Below are positions 11,547-63,855 of a stretch of 64,000 bases of DNA, in pieces; within the stretch, counting starts at the first letter, position 1; each line of letters begins with the position of its first letter. Under the pieces are notes generated by a model. The model had not been told where the DNA came from and did no database searches. It worked only from the letters and a program-made list of their open reading frames with translations. The stretch is from Isurus oxyrinchus (Eukaryota). Where the stretch lies: contig JANJGN010000021.1 of NCBI GenBank assembly GCA_026770705.1, forward strand, positions 90,706,001 to 90,770,000. The letters run 5' to 3'. A program made the position numbers and the translations under genes.

Positions 11547-11582
11547 AACTGGACTCTCTCAAAAGAGCTCTAAGGAATGCAA
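11547..11582 (+). CDS. Microexon 4, 36 nt ((E)LDSLKRALRNA)
   Basis: tttttttctgtttattcag|AACTGGAC...GAATGCAA|gtaagg; phase 1. Confidence 0.88.
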
Positions 11583-12369
11583 GTAAGGAGGCCTAATTAA
11601 ATGGCCTAATTAGATTCTTTATAATCTGATTGAGACGAGACGACAGAAACAGTTTTAATTCCCCAGTATGCGCTGATCATGTTCTTGACAATGGACTTGT
11701 AGGATTTAATTTCTCAGAAGGCTCTGTGTGAGACCACAAAATGTTATTATTGAGGTGATTGAAATTCAAAGGGTATACGATGCCAGTATCTCGTTGTAAT
11801 GAAAAAAAGTGACTCACGCTTCAATAATTCCGACCTATAAAGTTGCTAACAATCCTCGAAACAAACGCGATGCCTCATCAGTCACTGTTTTCACAAGGAT
11901 CATTAACGTCGACGCAGTGATTAGCAGATAAGAGCTTACTTCCAATGTTGGGCGACTCCTGAGCTCATCCTGCCTATTGTCCAACATCCACTAAAAGTCC
12001 ACTGCTCTCCAAATGATATCGGTTTTCCATCGCCCCTTCTTGTTGAAAGAAATGCAGACGGCTAAACGTAGCTTGCTATTTAAATTGGGTGAAATTGTTG
12101 ATTCGGTTTCGCCTGTTCGCCCAAAACACTTCGAATGATCTTGCACCTGACAGTACATTTCTGTGGGGTCCCCCCAAGAAATCCCGGGGTCACCACTGCT
12201 GAACAGCTCAGTCGTGATCAGATGGTGCTTGACGGCAGTCTGTATGAGTGCTTCAATCTCTCTGCAGGTACTGGTATCGTGATGTCAAATATTTAAAATC
12301 TTTTTTTTAGTATTTACAGAAAGAGAGTTAACAATTCAAGTTATGTTTAGCACAGATATCTGAAAAGTT

Positions 12370-12710
12370 AAAAGCAAAATACTACGACTGCTGGAACTCT
12401 GAAACAAGAATATAAAATGCTGGGAAACTCAGCAGACCTAACAGCATATCTGGAGAGAATAACAGTTAACTTTTCGAGTCCTTTGACTCTTGATCAGAGC
12501 TAAGGAGAAGTAAAAATGTGATGGCAGCTATGCTTTTTAAGTGGGTGCAGCAGGTCAAGCCGGGTAGTGATAGCTGGGGGCAAAGGAGAGATTGACAAAG
12601 ATGTCATGAACAAAAGGATAAAGGGGGAATTAATGGTAGTAGTAAGGGCTAAATGAGTTGCTAATGGGGACATTGAGGTCAGAAAGCAGAATGTGGTAAT
12701 AGCAGGCCTT
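12370..12710 (-). mobile_element. Penelope-like element terminal fragment
   Basis: aaaatgctgggaaactcagcagacctaacagcatatctggagagaataacagttaacttttcgagtcc is the same motif found at 45860 next to a GIY-YIG coding remnant. Confidence 0.7.
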
Positions 12711-12869
12711 CTATAATTTCAGACAATTTCAGGTGCATAATCTGGGACGAAATTAATTACCATTTGGAAAATTGCCAAATTAAGAATTGCAGGTCAGAAT
12801 TGTGCTTTAAAGTCAAGTCATGTTACATTAGCTTGATCGAGTTTATTGAAGAAGTAATGGATGTGATTA

Positions 12870-22790: not shown

Positions 22791-23937
22791 GGATTGGGGT
22801 CCCCCTTCTATTTTTGCAATGAAGTTGAACTAGGATTTTTCGGACCTGAATTTCACTGGTTGCTGTTTATGTACATAATCCAAAGTTGTACAGATTTTTG
22901 GAGGTCCCCGGGAAGCAGGGGAATTGTCCATTACAAGTTCAAACTTCCTGGGCAATTGCCACCAAGGCAGCCTGTTAGGGACCTTGAAGATATTTTAAGT
23001 CTCTGAACATGCCTGTTTTAGCGCAGCACATTTTCTGACTTTGGTAGTGTGAGAGGTGTCTGTTCCCTGATCTAGTCTGACTGTTGTGCATTCACTAAAA
23101 TCTGTGATCTGAATTCAGCAAGTTCTCTGAGCTCGTAGCTATGACCGCTATTTTCTCGCTGAATTCTGCATGATGAGTGGTATGAAATTGATAGTTTTGA
23201 GCATCGTGCTTTCTTGGAACACTGACAGTGTTGTACAGTCATTGAGAACAACATCAGGATTGTCATGAACCATCTCAAAACACCAGTATAAGAAAGGTGC
23301 ATACACTGAACTCGGCAAATCGGACATGTTGCACCATATAAACAGAACAAAGGTTGCAAGTGCTGGGAAGATATCCTGAACCTAGAAATGCTATGGTTAT
23401 AGCTGCAATGTAATTCTTAATGCCATGTTTTCAGAACTGTGTGCTGTCTTTACATAGAGAGATGAAAATAGTTACTAGAATTGTTCCAGGGATGAGGAAT
23501 AAAGTAATTTGGTTAGACTAGAGTAAATGTGTTGTTCTCCTAACAGCAGAGACGTATAAGAACACATTTCGTAGGGTGATTGAAATCATAAACTATTTGA
23601 ATAGAATAAATGAAAATGATCTTTTCTAATATCCTGATTGTTAACAATTGGAGGAGCACGAAGTTGGGGCATTGCCAAAAGAAGAAATCAGAAGCATTTG
23701 TGCGTGAACACGTTAGTAGTGGGGTGTGGTGGGGAGTCAAAACTACAGAACCAAACATGTCCAATTTAAAACCCTGAAACTCCATTTTTATAGGAACTGA
23801 TTTCCCGCTCGTAAATAAGCCCACCAACACCATAGATGCAGTTTTGGATTTCTGTCATATTAATATTTAAAACACAGACTTATGTCCTCCAGAGTCAAAA
23901 GCGTAGTGCGATGTAACACTGTCACTTTTACCTACAG

Positions 23938-23964
23938 ATGATGATTTGAAAATTAAGCAAGCAG
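23938..23964 (+). CDS. Microexon 5, 27 nt ((N)DDLKIKQA), GC donor
   Basis: cacttttacctacag|ATGATGATTTGAAAATTAAGCAAGCAG|gcaagt, a consensus GC-AG donor; phase 1. Confidence 0.82.
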
Positions 23965-24098: not shown

Positions 24099-24125
24099 AA
24101 CTTGACAAACATGTACAAAGCGATG
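24099..24125 (+). CDS. Microexon 6, 27 nt ((E)LDKHVQSD)
   Basis: ttgttattattactttag|AACTTGACAAACATGTACAAAGCGATG|gtgagt. Confidence 0.88.
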
Positions 24126-30284: not shown

Positions 30285-30311
30285 AGGACAAGATACGTGA
30301 GGTTCAATTAG
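30285..30311 (+). CDS. Microexon 7, 27 nt ((E)DKIREVQL)
   Basis: ccttcaatctttcag|AGGACAAGATACGTGAGGTTCAATTAG|gtaaag. Confidence 0.88.
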   Translation, partial: RTRYVRFN

Positions 30312-31366: not shown

Positions 31367-31402
31367 AACGTCAGAAAATAGAAGCCATTCATCGGAATAT
31401 TG
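31367..31402 (+). CDS. Microexon 8, 36 nt ((E)RQKIEAIHRNI)
   Basis: cttttatttctgtcag|AACGTCAG...GAATATTG|gtaagg. Confidence 0.88.
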
Positions 31403-32735: not shown

Positions 32736-35319
32736 TTCATTTTGTGTTCTGCCAATTCTGGATGATAACGTTCCATGTTAATTCTAAATGGGGCAGCAGC
32801 AAGCATGAATTGTCCATTGACCTCTCCTCAGTGCAGGCCTGAGAACATAATTTTATCCTTAAACAGGAAGAGAATACCTCACTGACAATAAAGGATATCT
32901 CGGACATCACAATATGGCACAACCCTGGCTCATTTCCTTGCAGCATTTCATTGTGGACATTGAACATCAGTTCAAGCCTCGGCTTTTTAATTGATTGGCA
33001 CCATTTTACGAATGGTACGTGGTATTTTAGTGATATTTCGCTTATTTGTCCTTCATAGAGGAAATAATGCGTCGTCAAGACTCAGGTAAAAAAACATTGG
33101 GGTTAAATCTAGCTGGGTTGAGATAGAAAAAGAGATGCAATCGCTTTGGCCACCAGCCATCTGGAAAACTGATATTCAGTTATATTACAGTCAATGAAAG
33201 TCAATATCAGGCGACTATATATCAATAGTCCCAAAATAAGATTTTTAACGTTTCAATCCCTGTCAATATGCAATTATCACCTCGTGGATCTACTTTATTC
33301 CAAATTTGAGATTAAATAATCAAGCGATAACACCTAACCCCAGTTTTCTCGCTTTCTAATAAAGTGGTGGGAGCTTTATTTTAATGTTTCAATCATGAAC
33401 GTCTGACGAACCTGAAGCTCTGAAGAATGAATGTAATGTCACTCAAGTGCTAGCAGTTGAATCTTCGAATTTGCAGTGGAATTAAGTTGGCTGGTTTCTC
33501 CATTGTTTTGAAAGATTACAAACGTTGCTGTCCTTGTTCACCAGTAGTTGATTGTGAGAATTTTTTAACGTGCTGTGTAATGTGCCGATTAGGCAGACGG
33601 CTTTGTTTGTTGATAGTGCTAAGCTTCTTGCGCATTTGTGAATTACATGGAGAGTATTAAATCACGCTCCAGATATCAGGGAGTCAGGTGACGATTTCCC
33701 AGCCTCTGACAAGGTCTTGCAGACACAGCATTCCAGCTGCATTTGGGCAATTTTTACCACGAGCATGCTGTTTTAATCAGACTCATCGACGGTTTTACTG
33801 CTGAAAGTGAATATGACATGGATAGATAGTTTTTCCATGGAACGTTATTGTCTGGAATTTGTTTGGTGCGAATGTCTTTTGCCACTTGAAGGCTTAAGCC
33901 TTTAGTTGTCCATGCCTTTTTGTATTTGGGCACGGACTGCCTCGTTATCTGATAACCCCCGAAAGGTACAGAACACTTCGCAATGGACGTAAATGCCCAA
34001 TGAACGAAATTGTCCTCTTGGGCCCTGTGATTTAATAGTAGTAATTGATGAAGAAGCTAAAAATCTTTGGCCGGATGGTTCTGTCCTGAGGACTCAACGA
34101 AATCATGAGGGTGGGATTATTGGTCTCCAACAACCAGAATGCTGATTGTGAAGGATGTACTTCTCCAGCGGTGTTCAAACATGCACTATATTAATCAGTA
34201 GTATTAAAAAGTAACAACTTATGAATGTATGCAAGGTCTACTTGGAGAATCTGAATACAGATTTACAATGAATATAAATGTTACGGGTAAAATTAAGGGT
34301 AAATTTTCAAAACCGGAGATGTATAGAATTGCTTTGCTTCTGAAGCATAAGAACAAAATGTGTTTGCTCAACTAGGCTGCCTTCATAAAATAGAACATAT
34401 CAAACTTTTATTGTCCTATATGCGGAAGCAGAATTCAGCATTTATTTTAAAGTTGAGAGAAGAATTGAAGTTCTCCAGTGATCTCTAATGCTGCAGTGAG
34501 GAATTACGACATCACAGCGGTGGTGCTAATGGTTCTATAACTTTGGGAAGAAATGACACAGTAAGAAACATATTTTCGTTTCCACAATAAAAATGTCATT
34601 ATTGGACAGTAATGGAACAAACGGTGAAAACGAAATTCAATTCACAAATGCATATACTGCGCCTTGTTTGTGTAATAGCACACATGCATACACGACCAAT
34701 GGAATTGTAGAATTCAGTTGCCAGAAACTAAATATATTGTATCCATGGTTCAGGACTTCTCCAAAGCTTTCAGCATAGTAACAGAATTTTTCATTTATCC
34801 AAATCTTATGAAAAGAATGACACTAAATTTGAATCGTTCATATTTACTAAGTATGAGGAATTAGAGAATGTAAATGTTAAAATGCAAATAGTATGTCAGC
34901 ACATACAGTACAAATCACCAAACAATCCTCCAACAGGTAGACCGCAGTGCCACTGTAAGTGTGATCTGTTAGCAATAGAGCTACTTCAAGTGCCAGAATG
35001 ATTTGGTAAATGATAGGCATCAGGAGAGAATGGAATAACAGGAAAACATGAGACCAAACCTCAAATAATAAAAATAAAAGGTTGCATTTTTCAAAGTAGC
35101 TTGCCATATAATTGGTATTATGCGATCAATGCCATGGTCACCTGTTGAACAAAAGCAAAACACTGTGGGCGCCGGACGTCTGAAATAAAAACAGAAAGTC
35201 ATGGTCTGTGGAGAGAGAAACAGAGTTTACCCATAACGTCCGAGATCCGGAGCACCATATCTGGGGCTTATCGAAAAGATGCTTGCGGACGCAATCCCGT
35301 CAAAACCATGAGCACACAA

Positions 35320-37327: not shown

Positions 37328-37345
37328 AAACAAGTGTTGATCCAG
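37328..37345 (+). CDS. Microexon 9, 18 nt ((E)TSVDP)
   Basis: gctttttttttgcag|AAACAAGTGTTGATCCAG|gtaaaa. Confidence 0.75.
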
Positions 37346-37413: not shown

Positions 37414-37433
37414 CCCCCCACGCCCCCCTCCCT

Positions 37434-37483: not shown

Positions 37484-38993
37484 CCTTAAATACCATCACA
37501 TATTTGTCAGTTATTCCTAAGTGCACCACTGGAAATATGATGATGGGTTCACTTTGCCTATTGAAATGTTGTCATCTGCGTGGCCTGACATTTGACAGAT
37601 GAACGGGCCCAAATTTTAAATCCATCTATGCCAATTGGATAGAAAGTCGCAGCAACATCTAAATATTTCTGGCCACCTTCTTTATGGAAAGTTGGGTCTG
37701 TGCCTTTTCGTTTTGCCAATTTCCGCCGATGTCTCACCAAATCATCAACGCTTCCATGAGAAATTCCCTTCACTATATTCCTAGACATTTCCTTGGCGTT
37801 AATTTCAGAACATCATCACTTATGAATTGATGACTCAAACAACAGAACTTCCCTTTGATGGCATCTGAGCATGTCTTCGCCATCCATGCCCTCCAGACAC
37901 ACAATTGACTGGTAGAAATGCTGTAAACTGGCAATTCTTAATAGACAATTAAGCTGGAGCTTGTGTTGACCCTTCAGAATTGGAAAAACTACGAACTCGT
38001 CTGCAAGAAGCAGGTGAGGAGAAAGAATATATTCCCGGTAATCCTCGTTCAGAAGTCTGCATTCGCAGCATGTGAGGAATTTTACTGCCCCGTCATGGGG
38101 CGGGAGGAGCCATAAAATGGGGAGAGCCATTCAAAAGCCCATTGCCCTTGCCATAAAATTTTGCCCAGCACATTTTCTGCATTGAGGATGAAATTTACTT
38201 AAAATTTGTTAAATGCGATTCCTATGCTATGAAAACATCCCTGTGCAAAATAGACGCATAAATTCGCAAATTCTAAGGGCATGTTGGATGCCATGCATTT
38301 GACTAGAAAAAATTGATTGATTAAAAATGCCTTTTTGAAAGGCTCGCTACATTTTACGGCCACATTCCCGCCCGCGCCATGATGGAGCCATGAAATCCAA
38401 TCCCAACAAATGACTTATTGACATGGATATCTAACATCATGAGCCTTGAGTATCTCAACGAGTCTTGTGGCAAGGCACTTAATATAAATAAGCTATAGCA
38501 AAAAGAGTAAACACTGTGCCAATGAAACAGTTAACAGTTTAGGAATGGGCGATTGAATGTAATATAAACGAAGAGACTCTTGAAAACGAAGGGATCCCTT
38601 GCCAAACATATTTGCGCTAAATTCTGTTGATGACAACACAGTGACAACACTCAAGTAATACTCTTGGATATTTTGAAATGAAGATATCCAAATCAATAGA
38701 TTTACTGAAAAAAACTAGAAAGCTGAAAATCTGCTGAAAATCGCATGGAAAATACACAACTAATCTCGTTCACTTAAACTTGTGCGTTAGTGCAGCATAT
38801 GACAATAAATCTTACGTACTTGCATAGATAAAATCAGTGGCAAGCTGATAGAGTACTGAGCATTTTCATCGTGAAATTGACTATGAAACATGTTACTTTG
38901 AAACAAGTCATTCTGATGTGGCATAACTGATTTAGGTGACTAATAATTGCCTGGAATTTACAGTTTTAAACGTAATGCATTTTTATTTTGCAG

Positions 38994-39020
38994 AATTGGA
39001 AGCGTCCAGAAAAGATGCAG
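38994..39020 (+). CDS. Microexon 10, 27 nt ((E)LEASRKDA)
   Basis: catttttattttgcag|AATTGGAAGCGTCCAGAAAAGATGCAG|gttgaa; strong acceptor, modest donor. Confidence 0.8.
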
Positions 39021-45445: not shown

Positions 45446-45481
45446 ATGCGAGAAAAATGAAAAAAGCACTTCAAGATTTAG
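45446..45481 (+). CDS. Microexon 11, 36 nt ((D)ARKMKKALQDL)
   Basis: ttttacttcggacttctag|ATGCGAGA...GATTTAG|gtaaga. Confidence 0.88.
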
Positions 45482-47063: not shown

Positions 47064-47090
47064 AAGATAAACTACGTGAAAAGGAGTCAG
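47064..47090 (+). CDS. Microexon 12, 27 nt ((E)DKLREKES)
   Basis: atcttttttatgcgaatag|AAGATAAACTACGTGAAAAGGAGTCAG|gtaaaa. Confidence 0.85.
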
Positions 47091-47242: not shown

Positions 47243-47269
47243 ATGTGCTTGATGGCTGTAGCAACGAAA
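47243..47269 (+). CDS. Microexon 13, 27 nt ((D)VLDGCSNE)
   Basis: caattctgttttag|ATGTGCTTGATGGCTGTAGCAACGAAA|gtgagt; the donor flank gtgagtattg is identical to that of exon 6. Confidence 0.85.
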
Positions 47270-48599: not shown

Positions 48600-51500
48600 A
48601 CAGAAGCTTTATATTTTCAGTAGTTGTTAGGATTATTTCTACAACATTATTTGAGCAAGGGTATAAATGTTGCAATTCCCCACCTCACTGGCATCAACTC
48701 AACGTGTACAGAAGATGGTAACATTATGGCTAGTCCCTCCACAATTTCCACTTTCAATTCTATCAGGTTGCTTTGAAGTATCATATCCGCTTCTGGTGTC
48801 TTATGAAACTTAAGAGCAGACTATTTATATAATATGACCTTCTAATGAATTTTAAAGCGTATGAATAGCTGTATTACCTCTTCTTTCAACATAGCCTGGA
48901 CAGCATCTTCTTTCTTGTTAAAGACAGAAGTAAATTGTTCACTTAAAGCCTCATCTATGCTCGCTGCATTATGCCCCTAAATCCTCCTATTGATCCCTAA
49001 TCACTCTAATCGTCTATTCCCAAACTATTGCTGCCTGAGTACCTATAGCCGGTTTTGTGGTTTTGCTTTACATTAGCTCCCAGCCTCTGCTCATGCTCTC
49101 GCTTTACATCTATATTTCATTTTCACTTCCCCTATGAACGTTCAATATTCATCTTGTTCCTCAGTTCTGTTATAGAGCTGTTACCTGTGATATGCACTCA
49201 TTTCCTTCCTTCTTCATTTTCTTCTTCATCTGTTTTGTCATCCATAGCGCACTAGACTTGTTTCCACTACCTTCCCATTTCGTGGGAATATACCTTGACT
49301 GTGCTCAACCTACATCTTTAGCATGTTTTCCTTCCCACGTTTCATTCCACTTTTTCTGGCGCAGATCTAATCTTACTTCATTTAAGTTGACTCTACCACT
49401 GTAAATCATTTCTGTTATGATTGTTTTTTTTTCTTATTTTCCTATAGCTAATGCTACAATGATCAGAGTCCCCTAAGGTTTCTCCCAATGGCTCTCGATC
49501 AACATGAACCACTTCTTTCCCACAAAACAGGGTTAGAGTGCCTCATTTATCGTTGGACCAGAAACATACCCTGGTGGATAATTTTCCTGAACAAATCGTA
49601 CAAACTCTCTACCAGTTACACTGCCTCTAACAAAGTTTATTTTCAGATAACTAAAAGCCCTCATTATATGGACTCTAAAATTCTTGAATCTTTCTGTAAG
49701 TTCCCTGCATTTTGCCTCTACATCTATCCTACTATTTGGTGAGTTATAACTCTGTTATAGCCATAGCATTAGATTTCTACTTGGCAGTCTACACCTGGCA
49801 CACAGCAACGTTTTTAACTACATTTTTCTGACAGTCATATATGAGCTTAGTAACCTTCAGTTAGACATTATTAAAATCACCCTTATTATTTGCCCATCTA
49901 ATGACGTCAATCTTCCTAAAGCTTTCCATCATTCGCAGTTTTCTGTGCATCCTGGTTTTGCTCTTGGATATGACATTCTGTTTCATACACATCAGTGTTT
50001 TAAACCCTTCCAATCGCAGTGGCAAATAAGTCCATCCTGGCTCTGTTTGGGTGAAATCCTTCTACTTTCTGCAGGTCCCATTTCTCCAGAACCATATTCA
50101 ATGTGCCAAGAATCTAAAGCCGTCCATGCAACGCTATCGTTCCAACCACAAATTCATCTGAGTGTTTCTCCTTTTTCTGTATTCACTTGAGTGCGATTCT
50201 GTGAGAAATCCAGAGATATGTAGTGTTGTAGGGCTGCTGGCTAATTTCTTACCTAGCTCCCTAAATACTGACTGCAAGACATTCCTCACTTTGTACTATG
50301 TAGTTCATACCAATGTGAACTGCGGCTGCTAGCTGATCAGCACTTCCCGCGCCCACACCCACCACACGCACCCCCCTCCCCTCCCTCACCCTCCTTAAAT
50401 TGAGGCTGTCCTGAGCCATTCAGTAAATTGGCCCTAACACCAATGGGGCAACACCCAATCTTGGTTTACATCTGTTTGAAAAGAAACGCAGGCCCATTCC
50501 CATAACTATGGAATGTCCTATCATTATTGTTCATACAGTCTTTTTGCACCCTCAAAAGATGAGCAAGGCATGGTGCCATGGCCTTTTCTATCGCTGCAAA
50601 TCTTATATGAACCATCACTCAAATCATTGTTCAGAAGTGATTACTGGTTGGACATTAGGATACATTCAGAGGAATCCTGCACTCCTTGTTTATTATTGAC
50701 CTCTCCCCCTGTTTACCCTTCAGTTTTGAGTTGACCATATCCATAAACACGCCATCATGAACTTCTCAACCTCATGGATGTGCCGCAGTTACTGTAGCTG
50801 CTGCTGGAACTCCAAAATGCAGAGCGCATGGTGTTGTAATTGAGACACTTCTTCTAATGATGGCTCTCTCATTTTCATGCATTACTATCTCATCTAGAAA
50901 TTCATCCACCTTGTTACTTATGTGGCATGAAATCAGATAAAGAAACGACAATACTGCCCTTTTGCTATCAATATCTACTCTGATCTTATTTGCTGGTGAA
51001 CTCTTCCGTTTGTACATTCAGTCACATTTTGTCACCTTCTAGTAATCATTCCCCCTATCACTATCTTGAAATATCGCCTTTTCCTTTTCACTAAAACTTT
51101 CGATAATTTTCACCTTAAGCCTCACCCTGTCCCTTCCACCTAGTATTAAATACAAAGCCCTCGTTATAAGATTCACCAGGAAATTGGTTCGAGCTTTCTT
51201 CAGGTGAAAATCGTCTTAAAGGAACAGCTCTAGTTTCCCCAGTAATGGTTTGTTTTACCGATAAGCTACGCACCCAACAAACTGACATTATTGCGTGTTT
51301 GCCTATTGCTCAGGTAATAATTCATAGATTATTCTCATTGCAGCTTTTTATAACAACAGCATGTAGCTGCTCATAGTCCCTCAACAGTACATCCTTTTTG
51401 ATCCCAGCTGTGTTGTTCATACACACGTGGACCATGCATCTAGATTTTTCCTCAACATTCCAAGGTACTCTGCAGTGCGGAGGAATTATCTTTTAGCCTG

Positions 51501-52000
51501 GCACTGGGCAACATTGCCTTCGGAATGCATGCCACAGACAATAGTATCTATTCCCCGAAGCATACTGCCATGTTAAAATACTTATTTCATTACACGCCCC
51601 TTACACTTAAACACCTCCCTACTCTTTCTGCTCTCGGGCAATGAAGCAGAAAATATATCGAACCTATTAAAAAATTGTAAGTGATTAGGCTCCTCCATTG
51701 ATGCCATATGAATGCCCATCCTGCCTCCTTTATGGTCACACTCCTCACGCGGCCGCCCGACCCGCCTTCCTCGCCATTGTACTTGGCTACGGACCAAATT
51801 TGAAGTACTTAGTTAAGGGATCATAATTACCATCTGGGGAAAAAAATGTGCCGGCATCTTGTCCCGTCCCTGAAGCATTGCAGTGTCCGAAACTCAAGCT
51901 CCAGCTCATCAACAAGGACGAAGGACTTGCAGACACTTACTGCAAGTATGGCTGCCATGAATGATGCACCTACAGACCAGCACCCACATGCTGCAGCTGC
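48600..52000 (-). mobile_element. Highly degraded CR1 (ORF1 and endonuclease part of ORF2)
   Basis: ORF 50772..51017 LYLISCHISNKVDEF resembles LYxNARSIxNKxDEL; ORF 51582..51797 WRGRRVGRP..C....MEEPNHLQFFNRFDI resembles CR1 ORF1. Confidence 0.65.
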
Positions 52001-54030
52001 AACCCAATAACAAACATATCATATTTATATCATATTTATTATGTTTTATTTAAATCATTAGGTAGCAAGCTTATCCAAATATTATTGAGATGTAATCCTT
52101 AGTTAGGTTTGCAGTTTAACTGGCTACATACTATGTTTAATGCAATATTAATATCTCACCATTAACAATTTAATATACAGCTGCAGTCAAGAGAGTGCAG
52201 AAAACAAATCTGAAACCACCAACGAACTAACTGCATGAGTGAAAAAAATGACGGCATGCTCAGGTTACTCTGTATCTGATTCACTCACTTGGGCCATTCT
52301 CTTTGTTTATAATATACCAGTCAGAGCCTCTTCCCCCACTTCACTGAATTCCCTCATTTACCAAATCCCAGTGTGCATCACACAGCTTCTCTGTACTCAG
52401 GCAAAGATGCAGCTTCATGATGCTTACCTTGTCTATCACCTAAACTTCCTATATTAATAACGCTGCAATTCAACTGGCATGTAACAAATATTGTTGGCTC
52501 GGGATTCGGTTTTTCCTAGTTTCCTAATTAAATAGATGCAGCTGCCTCTCGGAAGTGAGCTTCATTATCACTGCACATGTCTGAAATAAACCACAATTCA
52601 CTGTTAGCATTAAGTTACATGTTAATTGCAAGCTTGACAATATATTCGAAGAGAACAGTTCAGAGCGTTTACTTCCCAAATTCCCAGCTGTCAGCACTCA
52701 GTCTTGCTGCACTTAGGCAAACTGCACCTTCGTAATACTTAGGCAAAAATGAATGGCCGGTAAAGAACACTGGGATAGAATTACAGTTAACAAAAATATG
52801 TATTCTATCAATCTTCTCTTGGGGTTGGCCTACTGTTCATTGAATGTGTCCAATTTGTTGTGGCAGCATCCACGTTTACAGGCATGTTATTGACTGGAAC
52901 ATTGAATGATAATAGTAGAGGTTCCAACAATCTTTTCATCACACTGCTAGCCACGAAACCCTTACCATTCCTAATACGTGTCAAGGGCTTGTGGTGAGCC
53001 ATTTTGCAGATTGACACCCTGTTAGTGCACGTTCTGAACGCATTATGCTTGGGCACTGGGCCCTTGACTGGGACAGTAACAGGAAGCTTCTATCAGAGTA
53101 AGTGATGTTATCCACTGCGCCACAAGACCCCATATGAGAAATTCTGCTGGCATTTAAATAGTAAGTGCGTAGCATGAGGGAAAGAGGGTAATTAACATTA
53201 AGCGGGAAATGCTGGAAGATGGAAGATGGAAAATGGAAGATCATGATGACAAAATATTGGAGGTGCAATGGATAGTACGAAAAATGAAAGGAAAGGTGCT
53301 CTTAAACAACTGGTTATACAATCATGGATAATCGACTTCATCCATCAGATACCCAAAACTTATTCAGAATCTGTATGAGTCTGTGGTTATGCTAAAAACC
53401 GATTATTGTTCCAACTTCTTGTCAGACGGATATGTATGTGCCATAGAGGGTTCAGTGGAGATTGACCAGAATGAGTCAGTTATGAGGAACTTTTGTTACA
53501 AAGATAGGCTGGGGAGCTGACGTTGCTCTCCTTAATTAGAAGTGGATTGAGTGGAGATTTGATCGAGGTGGACCAGCTGAATATGGATTTATAAAAATAT
53601 CGACAAATGACTTTTTTTGTGGTTGATGGCTAAATGGTTCATAGATACAGATTGAATCATTTGGGTATTGTGCACCATGAATAATGAAATATATCAGCAG
53701 AAAATGTCTCTTTACTCTAAGTGATAAAAGATCACTTGATGTTTTCAACTGACTACTTGTTCAGTTTATGTCAATGGCAAATATGATCAGTCTTATGCTG
53801 AGCAGCATCACTATTTTTGTTGGTTGTAATAATAATAAAACAGATTTTCTAATTTCCTGTCACTTTTATGTCCGCAAAGTGGCCTGTTGCATGCCATGTT
53901 CGGAATGTTTCAACATTGTTGCAAATTAGTCTTCATATGATTTTTGCAATCCATTGTTTTTATTATTGAAATTTTGAAATTTATATGGCATTGTTTCTGT
54001 GAAATCTACATGCACCCTTTCCTGTTATAG

Positions 54031-54057
54031 CAAAGAAACTGATCGAAAAGACTTTAG
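54031..54057 (+). CDS. Microexon 14, 27 nt ((T)KKLIEKTL)
   Basis: ccctttcctgttatag|CAAAGAAACTGATCGAAAAGACTTTAG|gtaacg; fills the fourth slot of the 36-27-27-27 module. Confidence 0.85.
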
Positions 54058-57000
54058 GTAACGCATCTCACTCAGTTTTAAGAATAATCTCCTGCTAAAT
54101 AGTAAACAAAAAACATAACATTTCGTTTTGCTAGAGGTTACAAGTGGCATAACAAAATGGAAATGAAAATCGAACGTGATGAGAAACTGACGATCAATCT
54201 GGCACCTCAATTTTTGTGCATATTTAAATAATGTTAAATATGTCGGTTGTTTCATAAATTAGGCAAAAATAATAATCCATCATTAATTAGATTTTAATTT
54301 CTCATTAAAATTTAATCTGACCTGAAATATATGCTTTGTGCGATATAAATCTCACTATACATATGTTAATTATTTTCAATTATAATTAATTAAATTCGGA
54401 ATTGTAATCTTTAGCCTTTCCAGAACAACAATTATTATATTCAGCAAATGTCTTCAAAATTTACCCTTTGACATCTCACTACACACTACTGTGGTCGCAG
54501 AAATGGGAACATGTTTCATTTTTCAATGGAAATTGGAAACTGTCATTTATGCATCTTCCATCCTTTCAATTCTATGTAAAATATATTGGTCATCCAGTGC
54601 TATTGGTAAGGAATCATCCGTCAAAGTGTCTTACATCCAACAGCCCATTCGTTTTTCTTTTCATAATACTATAGTGCAATTTTCAGAATGGCCATTTGGC
54701 TTCTCAACTGGTGATTTAACCAATTTTTACAAAAAATCATTTTAATAAGATCCAGCTCCGAAGAGTCATGTTGGGCTCGAAATGTTAACCTCCGTTCTCT
54801 CTCCATGGATGCTTCCAGACCTGCTGAATTTTTCCAGACTTTCCTATTTTCATTTTATAAGATCTGCCTCGTTTGGTTCATTAATTTTAATGGGAAAAAG
54901 GACGAAATCAGGGTTGCATTTCGTAAATCGTTCACGATGTCAACATGAAATGCAACATTGGCTGCATGTGCATGGTAACTTCCTTTCACATCTAAATATT
55001 ATTTTTCGAATATTGGTCCAATAATAACTAATACATCGCTCCTGGCAAAATAGATTCAAACATATTGTATCCTAACAGAAGCAAGTTGGGTGCCCACCCT
55101 ATATCATGTTGCATTGACTGTTTGCTACTGCACACAAGGAAATGCTACACGTGTTATATGATATTGCAATTATACAATGTGCTTAAAAATATGCAAAAGA
55201 AACTCGAAACAAATCAGTTTCTCAATGCATTCCTGCAAATATTTATATTGCATCTTCCTGTTAATTTTCTAATATGCAATAATTTATACTAAATCATTAA
55301 AACAAAACACAAATAAAATCAGCAAAGTGAAGGTTTCTTATTCCTTATGTTCTTTTAACTGAATTAAAGGTATTTCTATCCATAAACGTGGAAGAAATTT
55401 GTCCCCTAACTGCTCTCCACGGGCACGTCACAAGGTTGTAAAATCAAATGTTATATATAAACCACTTTAGGATGGTAAAACAACCAAGACACTGCTTATG
55501 AAGAATTAAAAACATATATGTTTAGAGTCGCATAAGGAGATATTAGAACATAGATACAAACAATGGCCAAATATTTAGGGTTTAAGAAACGTTTCCAATT
55601 AGCAAAAAAAAATTAGAAATCTAAAGAGCTCCAGCATCAGAATTTCAGAACATAGCGCTTGAAAGCTACATCCACGACTCCCATTGTTATAGCAAATTAA
55701 AAAAGGCTGGCCAATGTGCCCGAAATTGATGTGCAGAGGTAGCTCGTTGTTTTGCAGTCCTCCAACCGGGTCCACATTTAGGGAAAAGCACGAGGCTGGA
55801 GGGAATTAAAAAGAAGAATTTGAGTAAGTTGAATTGCCATTTAACTTAGAAAGAATGTCTGTCAAGAAGTGCATTGGTGCGGGGTTATTGGGAATTGGGG
55901 TATGCAGAGATATCGATGTCCTCAAGGTTTCTGGTGTTGCAGATGGGAGGCCTGATGCTCAGGTGCTGTAGCTGCCAAATATAGACATAACAAAAGCATG
56001 CATGAGGGTCCAGAAACGAACTGAGCCAAGCATGGAGTGTGCGAAAGTTATGGGACAGATTTTCACCAAATTCTGGCATGTTAATGTTTTAAGAAGACAA
56101 TCCTTTGTTAAATTTCAGCATCAATATTGCGACTGCTTAATTCAGCCTCAGGAAATTGCCATAGAAAGTTTTCATTTCCTTGTCCAGAACTGAAGATTGT
56201 GCCTTCGATCTTTCTAATTTTTAGTGAGATATTTAGCATGTATATGGGATGGACCAAGGAAAATATTTCAACTCAATAGGGGCACACATGAGGCACTGCG
56301 AGCCATCACCAGCAGAATGCGTTTATTAAATGAGAATTGCAAACCCATGGCCTCACATGACCCTCACTCTACCATTAAAATGAAGCCAGCAATCCAACAG
56401 TGGGTTTCAATGATAAGTGTGGCGGAGCATGCCAGGAGTAACACTGCGTATACCTAAACCTGAAGAGCTAATTGGTGAAGCATCAAACCCAACAAGAAGG
56501 CATGCAAATTTGCCCAATGAGCATGGTATCAGCAGTGCTAACTGAGCCTACGACCAACGGATCAGATCAAAGCTCTTCTGTTCTGTAACATCCTTTCATG
56601 GTGCACAATTAAACAACTAACAGAATGAGGTATCGTCAACAAACCCATCTTCAATATTGGTGGAACATGAGCACATTAGAGCTAAAATGTTGCTAAAATG
56701 TTTGGAAAAAATATTCAGCCTGATGTGACAAGTAACTGATCCATCTCGCCTCTTCAATTGGCCACATCGTTGCAAAAGGCTCTCGTAAGACAAATTTGTT
56801 CCAATGATATACAATAATGGCGAAGTGCACTGGATATCGCAAACCTTATGGGCCCACGCAGCACCCTGGCTGCAAAGCGGAAAACCGTGCTATTGGTTTA
56901 GCCTCGCTTTAAATCAAGCTATTGCAGTGGAGATCCAAGCATCGTCTGTCCACAGAAGAAAAAAAAAGATATTTTCGAGGCACTTGTGGCCGTATCAGAT

Positions 57001-57365
57001 GACAAAGTGCAAAGTGACGGGGCGCGTGGTCGACAATATTAAAAGGCTGTTCGGAATTCCAAATGTCGAGTTAGGAGGCCGCAGGAACTAGACAGCTCTT
57101 GACCTCATTGTGACCTTAATTAAAGCACGGAAAACATAACTGAATTCCAGAGTTGAGATAAGAGTGACTGCCATAACTTGAAATGAGCATCCGACCACTC
57201 ATGGCTTCAAGGAACCTTTTCAAATTATAGTCAATATGAATGAGTGGGAAAACTCTTCCCAGACTGGTGCCATACTGAACTGAAAGTGAATAGTTGAAAC
57301 TGTGCTTGCGATTCACAACGTGGCAGCAAAATACAAGATCATGTTGTTGGTACCTTTTCTTTCAG

Positions 57366-57401
57366 AAGTTGAAAGGCTGTCTGGGAAACTGCAGGAGTGT
57401 G
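57366..57401 (+). CDS. Microexon 15, 36 nt ((E)VERLSGKLQEC)
   Basis: ccttttctttcag|AAGTTGAA...GGAGTGTG|gtaagg. Confidence 0.9.
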
Positions 57402-57422
57402 GTAAGGAAATTGACCAAATCG

Positions 57423-57478
57423 GTGTATATGTGTATGTGCGTGTGTGTATGTATGTGTCCGTGTGTGTGTGTGTGTAT
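57423..57478. repeat. Imperfect (GT)n microsatellite
   Basis: gtgtatatgtgtatgtgcgtgtgt..., starting about 20 nt after the exon 15 donor. Confidence 0.9.
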
Positions 57479-58711
57479 GATCTATATCATATATTCACCG
57501 ATTATTTTTCAATAGTGCAAAAATATATTCGTCCTAATCCATTGAGGGAAAAACCTAAATTCATTTATTTCGACAAAAGAATTGAGAAAATGTAAGAATA
57601 TTAATGGTTCTTTTTAAACATATTCATCACGAAATAAAATTTCAGTTGTACCTCGTTTATAATTGTACTGCTTTGTGCAAGTATTGTAATGCACTGGGGC
57701 TCCATTCTAATAGGTTAATGCAGTTGACTAATTCACGATCCAATTCATATTCATGACTTGATGACACATCAATTGTACATTGAAGTTAATTTTTATTTAC
57801 TTAATCTGATATCATTGGCTTCATTTTGGAAGACAGATTTATGTAGCGTAGCCCTGCAATTAATCAATGCTTAGTAAAGAAATGAGAAGGGATTGACCTC
57901 ATGTGTCGGTCACAAAGTCTCCACTTTTTAGCCATTCAATTCCATTTTTAACAATCGAACAGGTCAGTTACCACGCACAAAATTCCCGGCTCTCTACCTT
58001 TATATTATTTCACTGCTCAGGACGTGTTTAAGGGCTAAAAAGAATTTTAAAAATTCAAAAAGAGAAAGATTTCGAAGTACAGGACCTGTGTTGAGAATCT
58101 AAGTCTTAAGAATTAGAGACCATTATTTCCATTTCCCCACTGACAAAACTAGAATATCCCAAAAATACATTATAGCAGAGTTATCACTTTTCAAAGTGCA
58201 CAGCTACTGGAAACTAGCAGGTCTATAATTCGAAAACCACAACTAAATCAGAGATAAGAAAATATTTATTTTTATTGTTATTATGCTGATTCGTGGAAAT
58301 GTAGTGACAGTTGAACTACCTTGCTCTTCTTTTTTCAAAACCGTGCTATGGAAATCTTATATTCACTAATGGGAACAAACAGTCCCGCAGCTGAATTGAT
58401 TGGTAGAAAGGCAAAATCTGTGACATTAAGACAGGAGGGTCCAATTTGGCTTATGACCTTATGTGCACGCCATTTTGGTTCAGAGCTCAGTGGGCAATAA
58501 CTGTACCAAAACTATACAAGTGGCTGAACTATTAGAATTGTCGCTATTGTTAAACAAGCGAGTATTAACATCAAACAAACATAGAAGATGATTCAATCAT
58601 AGTATTGAAAAAAGAGACTTAAACAGGTAGTAAAAACGTGCCGTCGGACAATGCAGCTTGATACTTCTTTGCTAAAATGCCTGTAATTCTGCAGCTGTTC
58701 TGATTCCACAG

Positions 58712-58738
58712 AAAATCTTCTAGAGCAGAAAACGAGAG
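58712..58738 (+). CDS. Microexon 16, 27 nt ((E)NLLEQKTR)
   Basis: tgttctgattccacag|AAAATCTTCTAGAGCAGAAAACGAGAG|gtaagg. Confidence 0.88.
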
Positions 58739-58804
58739 GTAAGGTCATACGTGAGGCATTGCTTCGTGATACTGAGGTTGTTTTTCTTATTTAATCTGCA
58801 TAAG

Positions 58805-59260
58805 GATATAAGAACAACAATTAAAAATGTTTAACTCCTTCGGCCCATCAACACTACGCCACTATTCAATCGATCGTGTTGGATCTGATTGTGGTCTTAA
58901 GTCCTCATTCCTGCCTTACCACCACCCCCAGCCTCCACGGCCTTGACTCCCCAGTAGATCAATATTCTCTCTAACTCAGCCTTGAAAGGCTCAATGACAC
59001 ATTGCCTGGAATAGATAATTGAAAAATGCTAATGGTGCCCTGAGGGAACACATTCCTCCTCATCTCCATCCTAAATAGGAGAAATTTTATTCTGAAATGG
59101 CCCGCTCTACCTCTGGGTTGCCCAAAAAGGGGAGGGGCCCCTCAACGTTTAACCTGTTAAGGCCTCTCAGGACTGTATATGTTCCGATAAGTTCATCACT
59201 ATGTCTTCTAAATTTCTGTCTAATCTGCTTAATATTTCTCATAAGACAATCCCTTATACT
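58805..59260 (-). mobile_element. CR1 3' end
   Basis: Reverse-complement similarity to the CR1 3' UTR at 8600-8840 (cattcctcctcatctccatcctaaat..., ctctctaactcagccttgaa). Confidence 0.75.
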
Positions 59261-59279
59261 CTGCATCTAATACATATGT

Positions 59280-59965
59280 TCATTGTAATTGCAACAGGAG
59301 TGGTCTTCTCCACTGACAGGTTGCTGCTGGCAAGCCAAAAGACTTTCTGCCTACAGCAGATATTTGTGAAGCATATATGCTTTAGGGGCTGAGTGATACC
59401 TGGTATGTAGGCTGCACGTCCCAAGGACTGGGGGTTGCTATCCAACAGCATGTCGCTTTGGTTTTCAGCAAAGTGCTGACTATACTCAACCTGCAAGTGC
59501 TTGAAAAATCCAACATTAGTTGTGATTCAGCAATTTGACAGCACTTGGTAAACTATCCTGATTGTGCTCGGAATTACATTGAGAAGCAATTTAGGATTAT
59601 CAGTTGGACTCGCAGTGTGGCACACTAATATGTGCTTGAAGATATATATATTCAGACACAGAGCCCTGTCCTTTTCAAGATAAATTACATGTCCACGCAT
59701 TGTTTCTTTTTCATGGGAAACAGCCATGCCCTGCCCATTCACCATGGCAATGACTTAAGTAATCAGAGTTTACCTTTCTGGTTTTAATTGGAACAACAGC
59801 CGTTAAATGTTCCCTGATACATTCTCCATGGCAAAGCCTTTACTAATCAAAGTCGACTTGCTAACCATGCAGTGTAAATTGATATTTCTTTTGAGATTCG
59901 ATATTCTTGTGAATCTGTCCTGAAGAGTGTGAGATGAAAAGATTTGGCAGCATGTCTATTTTCCA
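59280..59965 (+). mobile_element. Penelope-like GIY-YIG and terminal fragment
   Basis: Colinear with 19040-19780 (ccactgacaggttgctgc...gatacctggtatgtaggctgcacgtcccaaggactgg...ctgtcctgaagagtg). Confidence 0.8.
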
Positions 59966-60222
59966 GTAATAGATAAGAACAAAATTATGTGTAGTATCGC
60001 CTGCATTGCCTCTGCAATAACATCTATAGTTGTAACAAGAGGTCCCTGTACTCCATCCGTCTTTAAACAAGGGCCAACTTTCAATTACCTGCCTAATTAT
60101 TTGCATTAATTGAATGCGTTTTCCCCCGTGACCCATAAAGAATCACCCACAATGTGTATCTACATATATATGATGACTTCAAAAGAGTAAAGTAATATTC
60201 CAACGGTTATTATTTTGTTTAG

Positions 60223-60249
60223 AACTTGCAGGACATAAGAAAGATGATG
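60223..60249 (+). CDS. Microexon 17, 27 nt ((E)LAGHKKDD)
   Basis: ttattattttgtttag|AACTTGCAGGACATAAGAAAGATGATG|gtgagt; paralogous to exon 6. Confidence 0.88.
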
Positions 60250-60481
60250 GTGAGTAATAGGAGAATAGGTAACTCAGGGTAATTTGCAAAGAAAAAAAGT
60301 TTGCTCGAGTTAATTAGGATCCGCCAAATATGGAAATGTTCTATTTTAAATTTATAATTCCCTACTGTGACTAAACAGGACAGGAGAAAATGACTGAATG
60401 TATTTAATCCCAAAATTCAAACAATATATCAGTATGCCACTTCGTCCACTCAGTAGCTTTTTTGACAAATATATATGTGTA

Positions 60482-60483
<2 letters not shown>

Positions 60484-60532
<49 letters not shown>

Positions 60533-60544
60533 GCGTGTGTGTGT
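60484..60544. repeat. (GT)n microsatellite
   Basis: About 30 GT units with two GC interruptions. Confidence 0.95.
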
Positions 60545-61149
60545 CTATTGATGTGTCTGTGCATGTTGATGTTACATTGTGTTGTTTCCTATTAGTAGTG
60601 TTTTCAAATCTCCCTCCTTACCATAGCTAGCATATCCCTTCATGTATATTTTCAATGGATTGAATAAGAGTTGAGTACCATTTGAGAATAAGTGGTGAGA
60701 AATGCTGAGAAACACTGTTGAGAAATTCATCAGTCACACATTTGAGCAAAAAAGTATTTAAATTAAATGATTGAACGTTGGGTACATAGTGATAAAGGCA
60801 ATCACAGAATGAATAAAACTGAAATATATCAAGTTGTCTGAGTGAGAAATGAGCAATAGAAGATTTTCACCTTTAGAGCCACACATAGTGAAAAACAATT
60901 CAAATACATGGAATTGTAAAAGATGTAAGCAGCATGATAGCATATATATCAATGATCATTTTCTGGAGTCTTTGTAAAACAATTTTTGGACCATATAAAA
61001 TTAGATGAATAGTAGAAAGAAGGGAATAGCAACTAGAAATACCTCCGATAGGGTATTATAACTCGGAAGGAAGATGGCCATTGACGTATCAAATTTGGAG
61101 TCAATCAGTTCCAAAATTCACTGTAACTTTTTTCCAAACTTTGCCAAAT

Positions 61150-62875
61150 GCAGAAAATGTCTTCAGAGGAAAGGCAAGAACTGCATAAGACAAAAAATCA
61201 GAATTTGATCAAGAGTGGATTGATGGTGTTCTGACAAAATTGAAGTCAATGGGAACCATGGGAATTGCCTTCAATATTTGATGTCATGTCATGCACTAAC
61301 GAATGCTGTCATGTTTGAAGGAGGCCAATAATCTCAGACCAATGGCATCACTGTCGGTTTTCTCATGGTACTGACAGAAATACTTAATCACTTGCTTTGT
61401 GAATGACCTGCCCTCAAACATAATGTCAGGAGAGCTTGATTATTGCAGTGTGCAGTTCTATTTGGAATTTCTCAGACATGTATTATTTGGAGCCGGCGAG
61501 GTACATGTCCGGGTTATTGTTCAGGCATGGGCAGTTACGCACCACAAAACTATCAGGCAAAGACTACTTTCGACAAGAAACAAAAAAACCATCTCTCATT
61601 TACTTTCATAGGCATTAAATTCGCTGGATATCATTAAAAAAAACTCAGAACATATATATGGGAGCAAGAGTACAACACCTGTATTCGGTTCCATTATTTA
61701 GTAAGATTATGACGGACAATCAAGTTGAACTGCACTTATCCATCCAGTCACCATGTCCATTGTTTCCCTGAGAGGCTGAACATCTGACTTTCTCAACATT
61801 AAATATGTCCAAGGATGGGTCATTCGCAACCTCATTGAGCACCAAATTCCAAAAATTCACAATCCTTTCACAGAAGACTTCTACTTATTTCAGTGTCGAC
61901 GAGGCTGCACTCCAGTGTTCTATGTTCCTCAGCTAGGGCAGCAACTCTAAATCTGTACCCTGTCAAACCACTTTAGAATTATACAGATTTAGCTTAAATT
62001 AGCCCTCATTCTTATACGTTGCAGTATTTATAGATTCAATTCGTTAAAACGCACGTCATAGGACAACTCTCAATCCAGGAATTAATCTAGTGAACAAGTA
62101 AGGGACCGCCTCGAATGCAATTATCCCTTCCCTGATATGGGAATTTTACGTGCTTTCTCACCAGGGCCCGTTGCATGTGCAGCAGGACTTCTTCATTCTA
62201 GTAGTCGTATAGCCTGTTCAACATTCTGCAGACTGGTGGGAACCATTGGCTAAAATATCAAATGAACTAGCCATATAAGCATTGTTCCTGCAGGTCAGAG
62301 GTTGGGAGTGTCATAGATTCCCCAAGGCGCTTCTAACTCATTGTCCGATTCCCCAAGGCGCTTCTAACGTTAAAAATGTACAATTCAGTAGTTTGACTGA
62401 AGAATTTACATGTGTCTCAATGAGTGTAGCTAAAACAAAATCATAAAACTCTATACATTGCGAGACAAAACAGTTCATTCACTATCTTAAATATTCACTC
62501 CCTCTACTGTCAGTGCAAAGTGACAGCAGTGCACATTATCTACAAGGTTCACTACAGTAACTTTTCAGTCTTACTTCGATAGCAACTTCAAAACCCACGC
62601 TCTCTCCAATCTATAGGAGTCCAAGAGAAGAATACTACAATGGCAAGTTCCCGTGCAAGTCACACACATAACAAACTGTAACCTTATCATCACTTCAATT
62701 TCATTAGGCTGGGATCCTGGAACACGCTTCTGAACAACACTTTGTACGTGTCTACACCAAAGTTATTGCAGAAGTGCCAGAAGGCTTCTCATCACTATGT
62801 TCTCAAGGGCAGTTAGCGTTGTGCAATAAATCCTGGCCTTTCCAGCGACGCTTGCATCCCAAGAATGAATTGAAC
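61150..62875 (+). mobile_element. Degraded CR1/L2-group LINE split by an antisense CR1 3' fragment (about 61650-62180)
   Basis: Ends ...ttctcaagggcagttagcgttgtgcaataaatcctggcc...catcccaagaatgaat, like 25914-25985. Confidence 0.7.
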
Positions 62876-63828
62876 ACGTCCAAGCAGATTGCTTTTAGGC
62901 TGCAGCAACAAGGATGCACAGTAAACGTCTGCGGTGCTATTATCCTTTGGAAACTTTAAAGGAGCTCATGTTAGCCGGTGCAGATCGAAACAGTGGTGAG
63001 GGTACCTCACAGAATTAAAAAGCATATCGAGGAAAGCTGCTACTTTACCATTAAACGTTTAATTGTGGTTCATTAGACGAATAGTATCAGGCCACATACT
63101 TTGGAACTTTGAAAAATCAATTCTGAAAACAATGTTTTAAAAATTTAGTAGAAAATATCAACTTCTAAACAGTTGTTTGGCGCGTTAGTAGTGAAAGGGG
63201 AATAAAGCTGCTAAATGCTGAATTGAATTGATCATGCAAAAGGAAAACTCAGCAGGTTTCAGATTTAAGGTTTTCTTCAGGATTTTAGCATTGACAACAT
63301 TGTGTGTTTTTCTATTGAGTTAGGATGTTGTCTTGGAGATGTCACAAAGCAGTTGGGGTTACAAATTACTTTCTACGGACCCCGGTTTCTTCTCTATTCT
63401 TTGTGATTTCTATTGTGTGGAATTAATTGATCTGATTGATAACTAATGGATAACTTATTGGGAAAAATAGTTTTAAATTGGCTGTTTACTTCCCTGTCCG
63501 ATTATTAAAAATGCAACTTAAGAAGTGACTGTTTTTGACTGTAGGGGAATGTTAATCAACCATCACCTTCCAGTGGGTGGACATTCCCACATAGCTAAGC
63601 AAGGATAAAGACGGCAATTTAGCAAAGTTATGAAAATAATTTAAGTCACTGCACCATGCATTAAAGATGTGCCAGACTGTATGCCAAATTAAATAAGAAT
63701 AATATTAAATAATAGGTCAATACATGGTGGCATTTCAGGCCAAATTAAGGCTACAGAACTTGGTCATCAAGTAAGAGTAATAGCATAAAATTTATAGTTC
63801 GATGTTATTTTCTTCTTTACTCATTCAG

Positions 63829-63855
63829 ACTCAATGATACGTGAAACTAAGATCG
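63829..63855 (+). CDS. Microexon 18, 27 nt ((D)SMIRETKI)
   Basis: ttttcttctttactcattcag|ACTCAATGATACGTGAAACTAAGATCG|gtaatc; shares GATACGTGA with exon 7. Confidence 0.85.

Follow-up and report, generated by a model that had tools for sequence, protein, structure and literature searches.

How a protein hundreds of residues long can be assembled from exons of only nine or twelve codons, and from which ancestor, is the question raised by a 64,000-nucleotide (nt) stretch of the shark Isurus oxyrinchus, hereafter the window (positions 90,706,001-90,770,000 of contig JANJGN010000021.1, here C21, in a genome of 4.98 Gb). An initial annotation of these letters had described a four-exon cassette of 36, 27, 27 and 27 nt (39 residues) repeated four times. 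Analysis of 2.01 Mb of gap-free sequence around the window (C21:89.45-91.46 Mb) makes it probable that the window belongs to a tandem family of shark and ray genes whose phase-1 micro-exons encode a long soluble coiled-coil rod, with a B30.2 cap that is present in two paralogues and has decayed here. The best reading appears to be a headless coiled-coil gene family resembling the tails of butyrophilins and BG proteins, with a function that is a prediction. The four-exon series is an old and real building block within a longer word, A-B-C-D-E-F(-G), in which the letters stand for exon classes, and is not the period of the gene.

The 27- and 36-nt micro-exons are real. Among window candidates with strong AG..GT boundaries, 13 of 38 on the forward strand are 27 or 36 nt long versus 1 of 22 on the reverse strand, and over the 2.01 Mb the two sizes number 116 and 108 on the forward strand versus 11 and 12 on the reverse. 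A trained exon model recovered 339 exons on the forward strand within 89.66-91.35 Mb, none outside that interval and two on the reverse strand. The final catalogue spans about 1.7 Mb and holds 392 exons, of which 329 come from the trained model, 31 are manual additions guided by homologue alignments or by eye, and 32 derive from a class rescan; 179 are of 27 nt, 126 of 36 nt, 43 of 18 nt, 34 of 24 nt and ten of other sizes. All have phase 1 at both ends, lengths that are multiples of three and stop-free junction codons. Given that candidates were pre-filtered for an open phase-1 frame, this openness is by itself no evidence, which is provided by the strand control and the homologues. GC-AG donors are found in 8 of the 392 exons, two of them in the window (10358-10384 and 23938-23964), and the GC donor of the former is shared with its paralogue exon at 91,259,246.

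The homologues were reached from an intact B30.2 exon at 91,348,264, which led to the catshark protein XP_038671249 (945 residues, with SPRY as its sole Pfam domain); the rod of this protein led in turn to proteins of S. torazame, of the electric ray Narcine and of a Logan contig. In spliced alignments these proteins fall on the exons along their entire length. On the window gene the catshark protein aligns over 52 exons with 266 of 502 residues identical, 36 of 51 junctions abutting and a score of 784 (on 91.09-91.35 Mb it scores 1665), and the ray protein XP_069775420 aligns over 36 exons with 192 of 358 residues identical and 27 of 35 junctions abutting. Five teleost proteins with a coiled coil and SPRY, used as controls, score 33-138, and such proteins were rejected as homologues of the rod on these scores. 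Furthermore, blocks of 6, 8, 9, 11 or 12 residues distinguish the Narcine isoform models, and the 12-residue block corresponds to exactly one E exon, with the expected change of the junction residue. In RefSeq the same family comprises XP_038671249 and XP_038672308 (Scyliorhinus canicula), XP_069775418-28 and XP_069775384-90 (Narcine bancroftii) and XP_078422387 (Cetorhinus maximus), the last identical at 160 of 172 residues to the B30.2 domain of the neighbouring gene. These chondrichthyan models carry names such as A33-like, TRIM39-like, golgin-like and trichohyalin-like; several are fragmentary, and those tested align exon by exon. None of the proteins of 1,655-4,725 residues matched the rod, which is weak evidence, and an Atlas search with the rod gave generic coiled-coil matches only.

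Unsupervised clustering of the exons separates those of 36 nt into class A (EIxxLKxxLxxA), class E (ELEKLEAIRKDI) and two young subfamilies, and those of 27 nt into classes B, C, D, F, G and g. Their order is strongly non-random (mutual information 0.66 versus a shuffle maximum of 0.29). With the patterns picked after inspection of the data, the word A-[B/D]-C-[D/F] occurs ten times among the 392 exons (shuffle mean 0.24, maximum 3), its extension by E-F five times (shuffle mean 0.0), and the words D-E-F-G and G-F-A seven times each. In eight of the ten cassettes the B-C intron measures 105-183 nt, and the exon that follows is E in six, G in three and A in one. Three of these cassettes lie in the window, starting at 11547, 45446 (degenerate) and 57366. 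A degenerate search pattern for the E exon has six matches in the locus, one on C7 and none on C34.

The observations of the initial annotation are confirmed in part. All 15 exons implied by its sizes were found, with AG..GT or AG..GC ends and a stop-free phase-1 frame; only end coordinates had been given, and exon numbers were presumably matched to the right places via the quoted signatures. The quoted third-slot sequences of exons 6 and 17 were located at 24099 and 60223, and GATACGTGA proved common to the fourth-slot exons at 30285 and 63829 (its exons 7 and 18). The exon predicted to follow 63855, of 36 nt with a gtaag donor, is present at 65808-65843. The slot labels of its ten 27-nt exons beat shuffles both for exon plus donor (p 0.018) and when 50-nt flanks are included (p 0.0012), in line with the expectation that exons cluster by slot. 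Of the signatures held to be shared within slots, the gtgagt donor indeed marks class C (12 of 22 C exons versus 3 of 157 other 27-nt exons); the gtaagR donor, said to be used by all 36-nt exons, is found in four of five within the annotated range and in only 30 of 126 across the locus (20 of 75 in class A, 10 of 15 in class E and 0 of 36 in the young array). The second block, given as 36, 18 and 27 nt, was misread: exons at 33059-33085 (27 nt) and 37978-38013 (36 nt) had been overlooked, both of which align to ray or catshark proteins, and the block is 36, 27, 18, 36, 27. The sizes from 11547 onwards thus run 36,27,27,27 | 36,27,18 | 36,27 | 36,27,27,27 | 36,27,27,27 | 36,27,27. Nor does the exon at 31367 open a cassette; it belongs to the other 36-nt class, with 69% identity to the exon at 65808 versus 48% to the others. 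Instead of four copies of a four-exon unit the window has the three cassettes given above, one of them degenerate.

These corrections bear on the proposal that a single 39-residue cassette, tandemly copied four times, sets the period of the protein, which we consider very improbable even though three A-B-C-D blocks, the slot labels and the correctly foretold next exon speak for it. The size pattern 36-27-27-27 is enriched within the annotated range (3 versus 1.2, p 0.023), but not across the locus (15 versus 11.9 in shuffles, p 0.16), and among 123 intervals between successive 36-nt exons it makes up seven, against 35 of 36-18 and 30 of 36-27. Self-comparison gives peaks at lags of 66, 123 and 57 in the catshark protein and 126 in the window gene with none at 39, where the score is 41 versus 124 (catshark) and 73 (window gene) for the top lags. 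Resemblance between C and G exons reaches 0.58-0.64 in the window, and E-F-G could in principle be a very old copy of A-B-C; class-wide, however, the identity of C to G (0.43) is hardly distinct from that of C to B (0.41). With the second block broken by two further exons and its opening exon in class E, a strict 39-residue period is refuted.

What does stand is growth by tandem genomic duplication of multi-exon blocks at several ages, shown for the young blocks and inferred for the old. Among the younger blocks, six pairs can be aligned together with their introns over 93-100% of the length, and their identity is 76-87%. A young array lies at C21:89,864,000-89,948,000, in which a two-exon unit (36+18 nt, 18 residues) is repeated about 35 times in two alternating subfamilies; here two compared intron pairs align at 78% and 87% and simple repeats are abundant. 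At the other extreme, nine of nine homologous intron pairs of the window cassettes share no similarity outside repeats, so these copies are old; this agrees with the initial view of old duplications of a four-exon cassette whose introns have since diverged. As for the different transposons thought to fill them, repeats, counted within 2 Mb, cover 0-67% of window introns, and none of 25 ORFs (open reading frames) compared with Pfam named a transposon family in the window. The locus is thus a clear natural example of protein assembly via duplication of exon cassettes at several ages: young blocks align through their introns, while old blocks retain just exon class, donor site and intron geometry. 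Given this mixture of ages, the constraint of the coiled-coil register on exon order is directly testable here.

The entire window (positions 1-64,000, forward strand) is internal to a gene that starts by C21:90,438,069, 268 kb upstream, and forms the 3' part of it. At its minimum this gene covers 90.438-90.83 Mb, from 90,438,069 to a B30.2 remnant, with 82 catalogued exons and 761 codons. It might instead reach back to 89.78 Mb and would then have 263 exons and about 2,500 codons. The remnant is a decayed B30.2 exon at 90,827,979-90,828,446 (121979-122446 in window numbering; nhmmer E-value 9.3e-12), with a partial second copy directly behind it at about 122692-122917. It retains its acceptor and has a stop after 17 codons. 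The 16 stops among its 172 codons and the numerous indels mark the decay as old. Intact phase-1 B30.2 exons terminate the arrays of two paralogues at 89,722,228 and 91,348,264. A further decayed B30.2 exon at 90,890,961-90,891,376 (E 5.8e-16), with one catalogued 36-nt exon (90,869,583) upstream, is probably the relic of another paralogue. Between paralogues the rod is under purifying selection: over 35 exon pairs the ratio of nonsynonymous to synonymous substitution rates (dN/dS), a mean over two lineages, is 0.28 (95% confidence interval 0.18-0.39). Of the paralogue's 74 exons, 38 were matched at 66% or more in an ungapped test that applied no ORF or splice filter, all 38 are intact, and 36 were unmatched. 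Neither of the two paralogues lies closer to the ray than the other (24 versus 22 sites), and this four-taxon site count leaves either of them as a possible orthologue of the ray gene.

Two alternatives concern the extent and the life of this gene. That the window lies within one gene of about 1.05 Mb with 263 or more exons (89.78-90.83 Mb), and not in a gene of about 390 kb among paralogues, is possible though doubtful: 89.73-90.82 Mb contains no B30.2 exon or remnant, all catalogued exons are compatible in phase and the vicinity of 90.43 Mb yielded no gene start, but the exon-free gap at 90.39-90.44 Mb, at 48 kb, is the largest that lacks a B30.2 exon, followed by one of 29 kb (median 2.1 kb). 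Also against it, residues 6-575 of a 586-residue protein from a 3.4-kb Logan contig map to 90.06-90.39 Mb and stop there, while the catshark protein maps from its residue 18 over 90.44-90.79 Mb. We judge it improbable that the window gene has become a pseudogene, and lost its function so recently that its exons still look intact. The dead B30.2 exon, a frame-shifting 22-nt exon, several weak splice sites and the second remnant at 90.891 Mb with its lone catalogued exon would all fit; yet the decay of the B30.2 is old and the 38 matched micro-exons are all intact, measured against the ray the gene has evolved at the same rate as the paralogue with a B30.2, and the ray models likewise lack a B30.2.

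Exons for SPRY, B-box and butyrophilin-type IgC domains crowd C21 between 82 and 118 Mb. Head domains were sought with Pfam in part of the 2 Mb and with local profiles over all of the 2.01 Mb. Profiles built from 19 IgV and 15 IgC sequences, run on 52,539 ORFs of the 2.01 Mb, gave best E-values of 1.5 and 0.6; none of 37 matches to PF22705 falls within 89-95 Mb of C21, the contig does carry IgC exons of butyrophilin type at 95.6-113.9 Mb, and Pfam detects no Ig domain in the homologues. Pfam scans of ORFs from 147, 102, 90 and 53 frames (forward strand, the last set including two on the reverse) gave no Ig, RING or lectin domain. In the 2.01-Mb profile search the sole RING match is a separate single-ORF gene at 91.41 Mb, the best B-box (E 0.035) is on the other strand and the best TRIM coiled coil has E 1.3; of the 150 candidates scored out of 2,299, none at 89.15-92.67 Mb is a RING, B-box or TRIM coiled coil, and Pfam finds none of the three in the homologues. 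No convincing spliced transmembrane exon emerged when the ends of the arrays and one gap, other than that at 90.39-90.44 Mb, were scanned for hydrophobicity, and by eye the catshark protein has no transmembrane segment. A candidate C-type lectin tail, suggested by WQYVNGT at +163,583, was rejected as the sequence is a 36-nt micro-exon.

At the other end, the two paralogues have a heptad region (period 3.5) followed by a terminal B30.2, an arrangement decayed in the window gene, and their B30.2 exons match SPRY with E 3e-11 and 2.5e-13. Among solved structures the best match of this B30.2 is BTN3A1 (E 8e-23), ahead of TRIM7 (3e-16). In a FastTree phylogeny of 153 B30.2 domains the family forms its own long-branch clade (support 1.0) at nearly the same distance from butyrophilins (BTN; 3.08) as from TRIM (3.19). 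The closest other B30.2 domains are five exons on C34 (2.7-7.5 Mb), which match the sister clade; no B-box or butyrophilin IgC lies near them among the matches listed. An origin in a TRIM gene whose RING and B-box were lost and whose small phase-1 exon ahead of the B30.2 was multiplied, which would predict an antiparallel TRIM-like dimer, seems unlikely to us. The chromosome arm is rich in TRIM genes, the nearest upstream B-box and SPRY pair being at 89.14-89.15 Mb, the tree distances do not part TRIM from BTN and the look-alikes in the Atlas are a mixture of both; but in the 2.01 Mb no profile match to a TRIM coiled coil, RING or B-box belongs to the family genes, the best solved-structure matches are BTN3A proteins, and many heptad micro-exons with split codons are the design of BG (PMC5938342). 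As no Ig domain was found, the window gene does not qualify as a BG gene or as a butyrophilin, nor, with RING and B-box not found either, as a TRIM gene.

Glu (18%), Lys (14%) and Leu (14%) abound in the exon string, which has a hydrophobic period of 3.50-3.52 in the cassette regions (3.6 in the 18-residue array). In seven hand-picked aligned cassettes the core residues are 2, 5, 9, 12, 16, 23, 26 (mostly His), 34, 37, 41, 44, 47, 51, 54 and 55, with a hydrophobic stripe at 2 modulo 7 over most of the length. The hydrophobic positions are 2, 5 and 9 in the A exon and 2, 5, 8 and 12 in the E exon. A and B together supply 21 residues, or three heptads, whereas the 39 residues of A-B-C-D are no multiple of 7; the spacing in E continues the stripe after a 39-residue cassette, which might be why E, and not A, usually follows. 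Helix register probably constrains the order of exons. As every catalogued exon has a length divisible by 3 and begins and ends in phase 1, duplication, loss or skipping of a block would leave the reading frame intact. Given that in the 2.01 Mb Ig, B-box and TRIM coiled coil were not found and the RING match is a separate gene, a soluble dimeric rod is favoured. We propose that the product is a cytosolic dimeric rod with short hinges containing Cys, Gly and Pro, a prediction from the sequence; that its length may be altered through duplication and skipping, making it a length-tunable scaffold by analogy with the chicken BG tail or zipper protein; that in a gene without its own B30.2 it could act alone or partner B30.2-bearing paralogues; and that the family most likely arose from a butyrophilin-type tail after loss of the Ig and membrane parts. 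More tentatively, this could be an undescribed giant micro-exon family of cartilaginous fish, in which an ordered vocabulary of 9- and 12-residue exons, with cassettes nested in it, serves to assemble coiled-coil rods and change their size through duplication and skipping, and the pairing of B30.2-less with B30.2-bearing products yields combinatorial, length-tuned cytosolic immune scaffolds within a TRIM/butyrophilin cluster, possibly from genes of more than 260 exons.

Several points weigh against the proposed rod family. The exon models rest on the genome and homologue proteins, not on transcripts of this species; no RNA set was listed as containing window positions 23800-24300, four sets of possibly RNA-derived contigs compared with window positions 45000-64000 have pieces and joints solely in intronic repeats and are uninformative on expression, and the RNA basis of the Narcine RefSeq isoform models is our assumption from general knowledge. 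Of the catalogued exons, 31 stem from hand addition and 32 from the rescan. Separation of the 27-nt classes is weak (for K>1 the held-out gain is about 1.2 nats), and the class letters of some window exons therefore reflect their position and not their cluster. In the B30.2 tree the family stays apart from the butyrophilins, and both the formation and the orientation of the dimer are predictions from sequence periodicity. The dN/dS averages over the paralogues' two lineages, and just over half of the paralogue exons were matched in a test blind to those with indels. The decaying 3' end, with its 22-nt exon and dead B30.2, fits a dying gene too. Finally, searches of the 2.01 Mb with homologue termini gave no convincing first exon or start codon, and a distant or unrecognised head is possible; the same approach gave no convincing last exon, and 29 CpG-rich segments were no guide to gene boundaries.

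As described in PMC5938342, PMC4046983 and PMC8813856, chicken BG genes are tandem, same-orientation genes with an IgV and a transmembrane region and without B30.2; their coiled coil is encoded by many tiny exons, 13 to about 37 of 21 nt and some of 18 or 24 nt, with the first codon split 1+2 and variable exon number, and zipper protein is a soluble product of the tail. Like BG, the window gene has symmetric split-codon micro-exons for a coiled coil, tandem paralogues and no intact B30.2; unlike BG, it has at least 82 exons, of 27 and 36 nt and in ordered classes, and no Ig or membrane part was found. The contrast with the 7-residue BG unit drawn initially is borne out, as only 5 of the 392 exons are of 21 nt. 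Butyrophilins are present in cartilaginous fish according to PMC12841164. The paralogues resemble them in the heptad region ahead of a terminal B30.2 and in the match to BTN3A1, and differ in the IgV/IgC domains not found in the 2.01 Mb, in a rod of hundreds of residues in place of a short heptad region and in their own B30.2 clade. TRIM/PRY-SPRY proteins share the coiled coil followed by a terminal B30.2 and the chromosome arm, but RING, B-box and TRIM coiled coil were not found. The enterophilins of guinea pig are soluble proteins with a long regular heptad repeat and B30.2 and are not known to carry Ig or RING; the likeness of these mammalian proteins to the family would be one of domain layout. 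Enterophilin-1 interacts with SNX1, according to PMC13749957. A literature search, thin on subscription journals, found no description of this family. Shared by sharks and rays, the family sits within a TRIM/butyrophilin cluster, its RefSeq models are fragmentary and wrongly named, and the decayed B30.2 represents a BG-like loss independent of that in birds.

The window exons, all on the forward strand, begin with a phase-1 27-nt exon of class G at 2498..2524 (E-LEELRQKN), which closes an E-F-G block starting upstream of the window and has a paralogue at C21:91,258,677; the introns flanking it contain tandem repeats of period 49 and 23 nt at 1477-1719 and 2544-2731. A 21-nt linker exon (10216..10236, KSAQHC) and a 27-nt exon with a GC donor (10358..10384, KELNASKE) stand ahead of the first cassette, which consists of a 36-nt class A exon (11547..11582, LDSLKRALRNA) and 27-nt exons of class B with a GC donor (23938..23964, DDLKIKQA), class C with a gtgagta donor (24099..24125, LDKHVQSD) and class D (30285..30311, DKIREVQL). 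The 36-nt class E exon at 31367..31402 (RQKIEAIHRNI) is no copy of the exon that opens the cassette. It is followed by the overlooked 27-nt exon at 33059..33085 (EIMRRQDS), in the F position but clustering as D, and by an 18-nt candidate at 37328..37345 (TSVDP) with strong splice sites and no placed ray or catshark counterpart. The other overlooked exon, of 36 nt and class A with a gtgagg donor (37978..38013, LEKLRTRLQEA), precedes a 27-nt exon with a weak gttgaa donor (38994..39020, LEASRKDA), which by eye equals a 9-residue block of the ray protein at that place. The degenerate cassette comprises a 36-nt class A exon (45446..45481, ARKMKKALQDL), a 27-nt exon in the B position clustering as D (47064..47090, DKLREKES), a 27-nt exon in the C position with a gtgagta donor (47243..47269, VLDGCSNE), behind a 152-nt intron and with a 24-nt Cys-x-x-Cys exon as paralogue counterpart, and a 27-nt exon clustering as D (54031..54057, KKLIEKTL). 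The last cassette has a 36-nt class A exon (57366..57401, VERLSGKLQEC) and 27-nt exons of class B (58712..58738, NLLEQKTR), of class C with a gtgagta donor (60223..60249, LAGHKKDD) and in the D position but clustering as F (63829..63855, SMIRETKI). Beyond the window, in its numbering and on the same strand, follow exons at 65808-65843 (36 nt, E, gtaag), 66012 (27 nt, F) and 73099 (27 nt, G), then two candidates for the last micro-exon, one of 22 nt at 99313 that shifts the frame and one of 21 nt at 99904.

The class C exons at 24099-24125 and 60223-60249 each place a His on the hydrophobic stripe with an Asp four residues on, and linkers near class C exons carry Cys or Cys-x-x-Cys, which are candidate metal-binding sites. 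An Rfam search of the window gave zero matches. A 191-codon frame at 7880-8455, with no Pfam match, presumably resembles the 3' end of a long interspersed nuclear element (LINE) reverse-transcriptase ORF. Outside the cluster, a C2H2 zinc-finger ORF (L107:906-1481) lies about 55 kb upstream of the first micro-exon, and the single-ORF RING-finger gene (L190:2527-3192), which has a hydrophobic segment at its C-terminus and lies 64 kb past the last B30.2 exon, can serve as a synteny marker.

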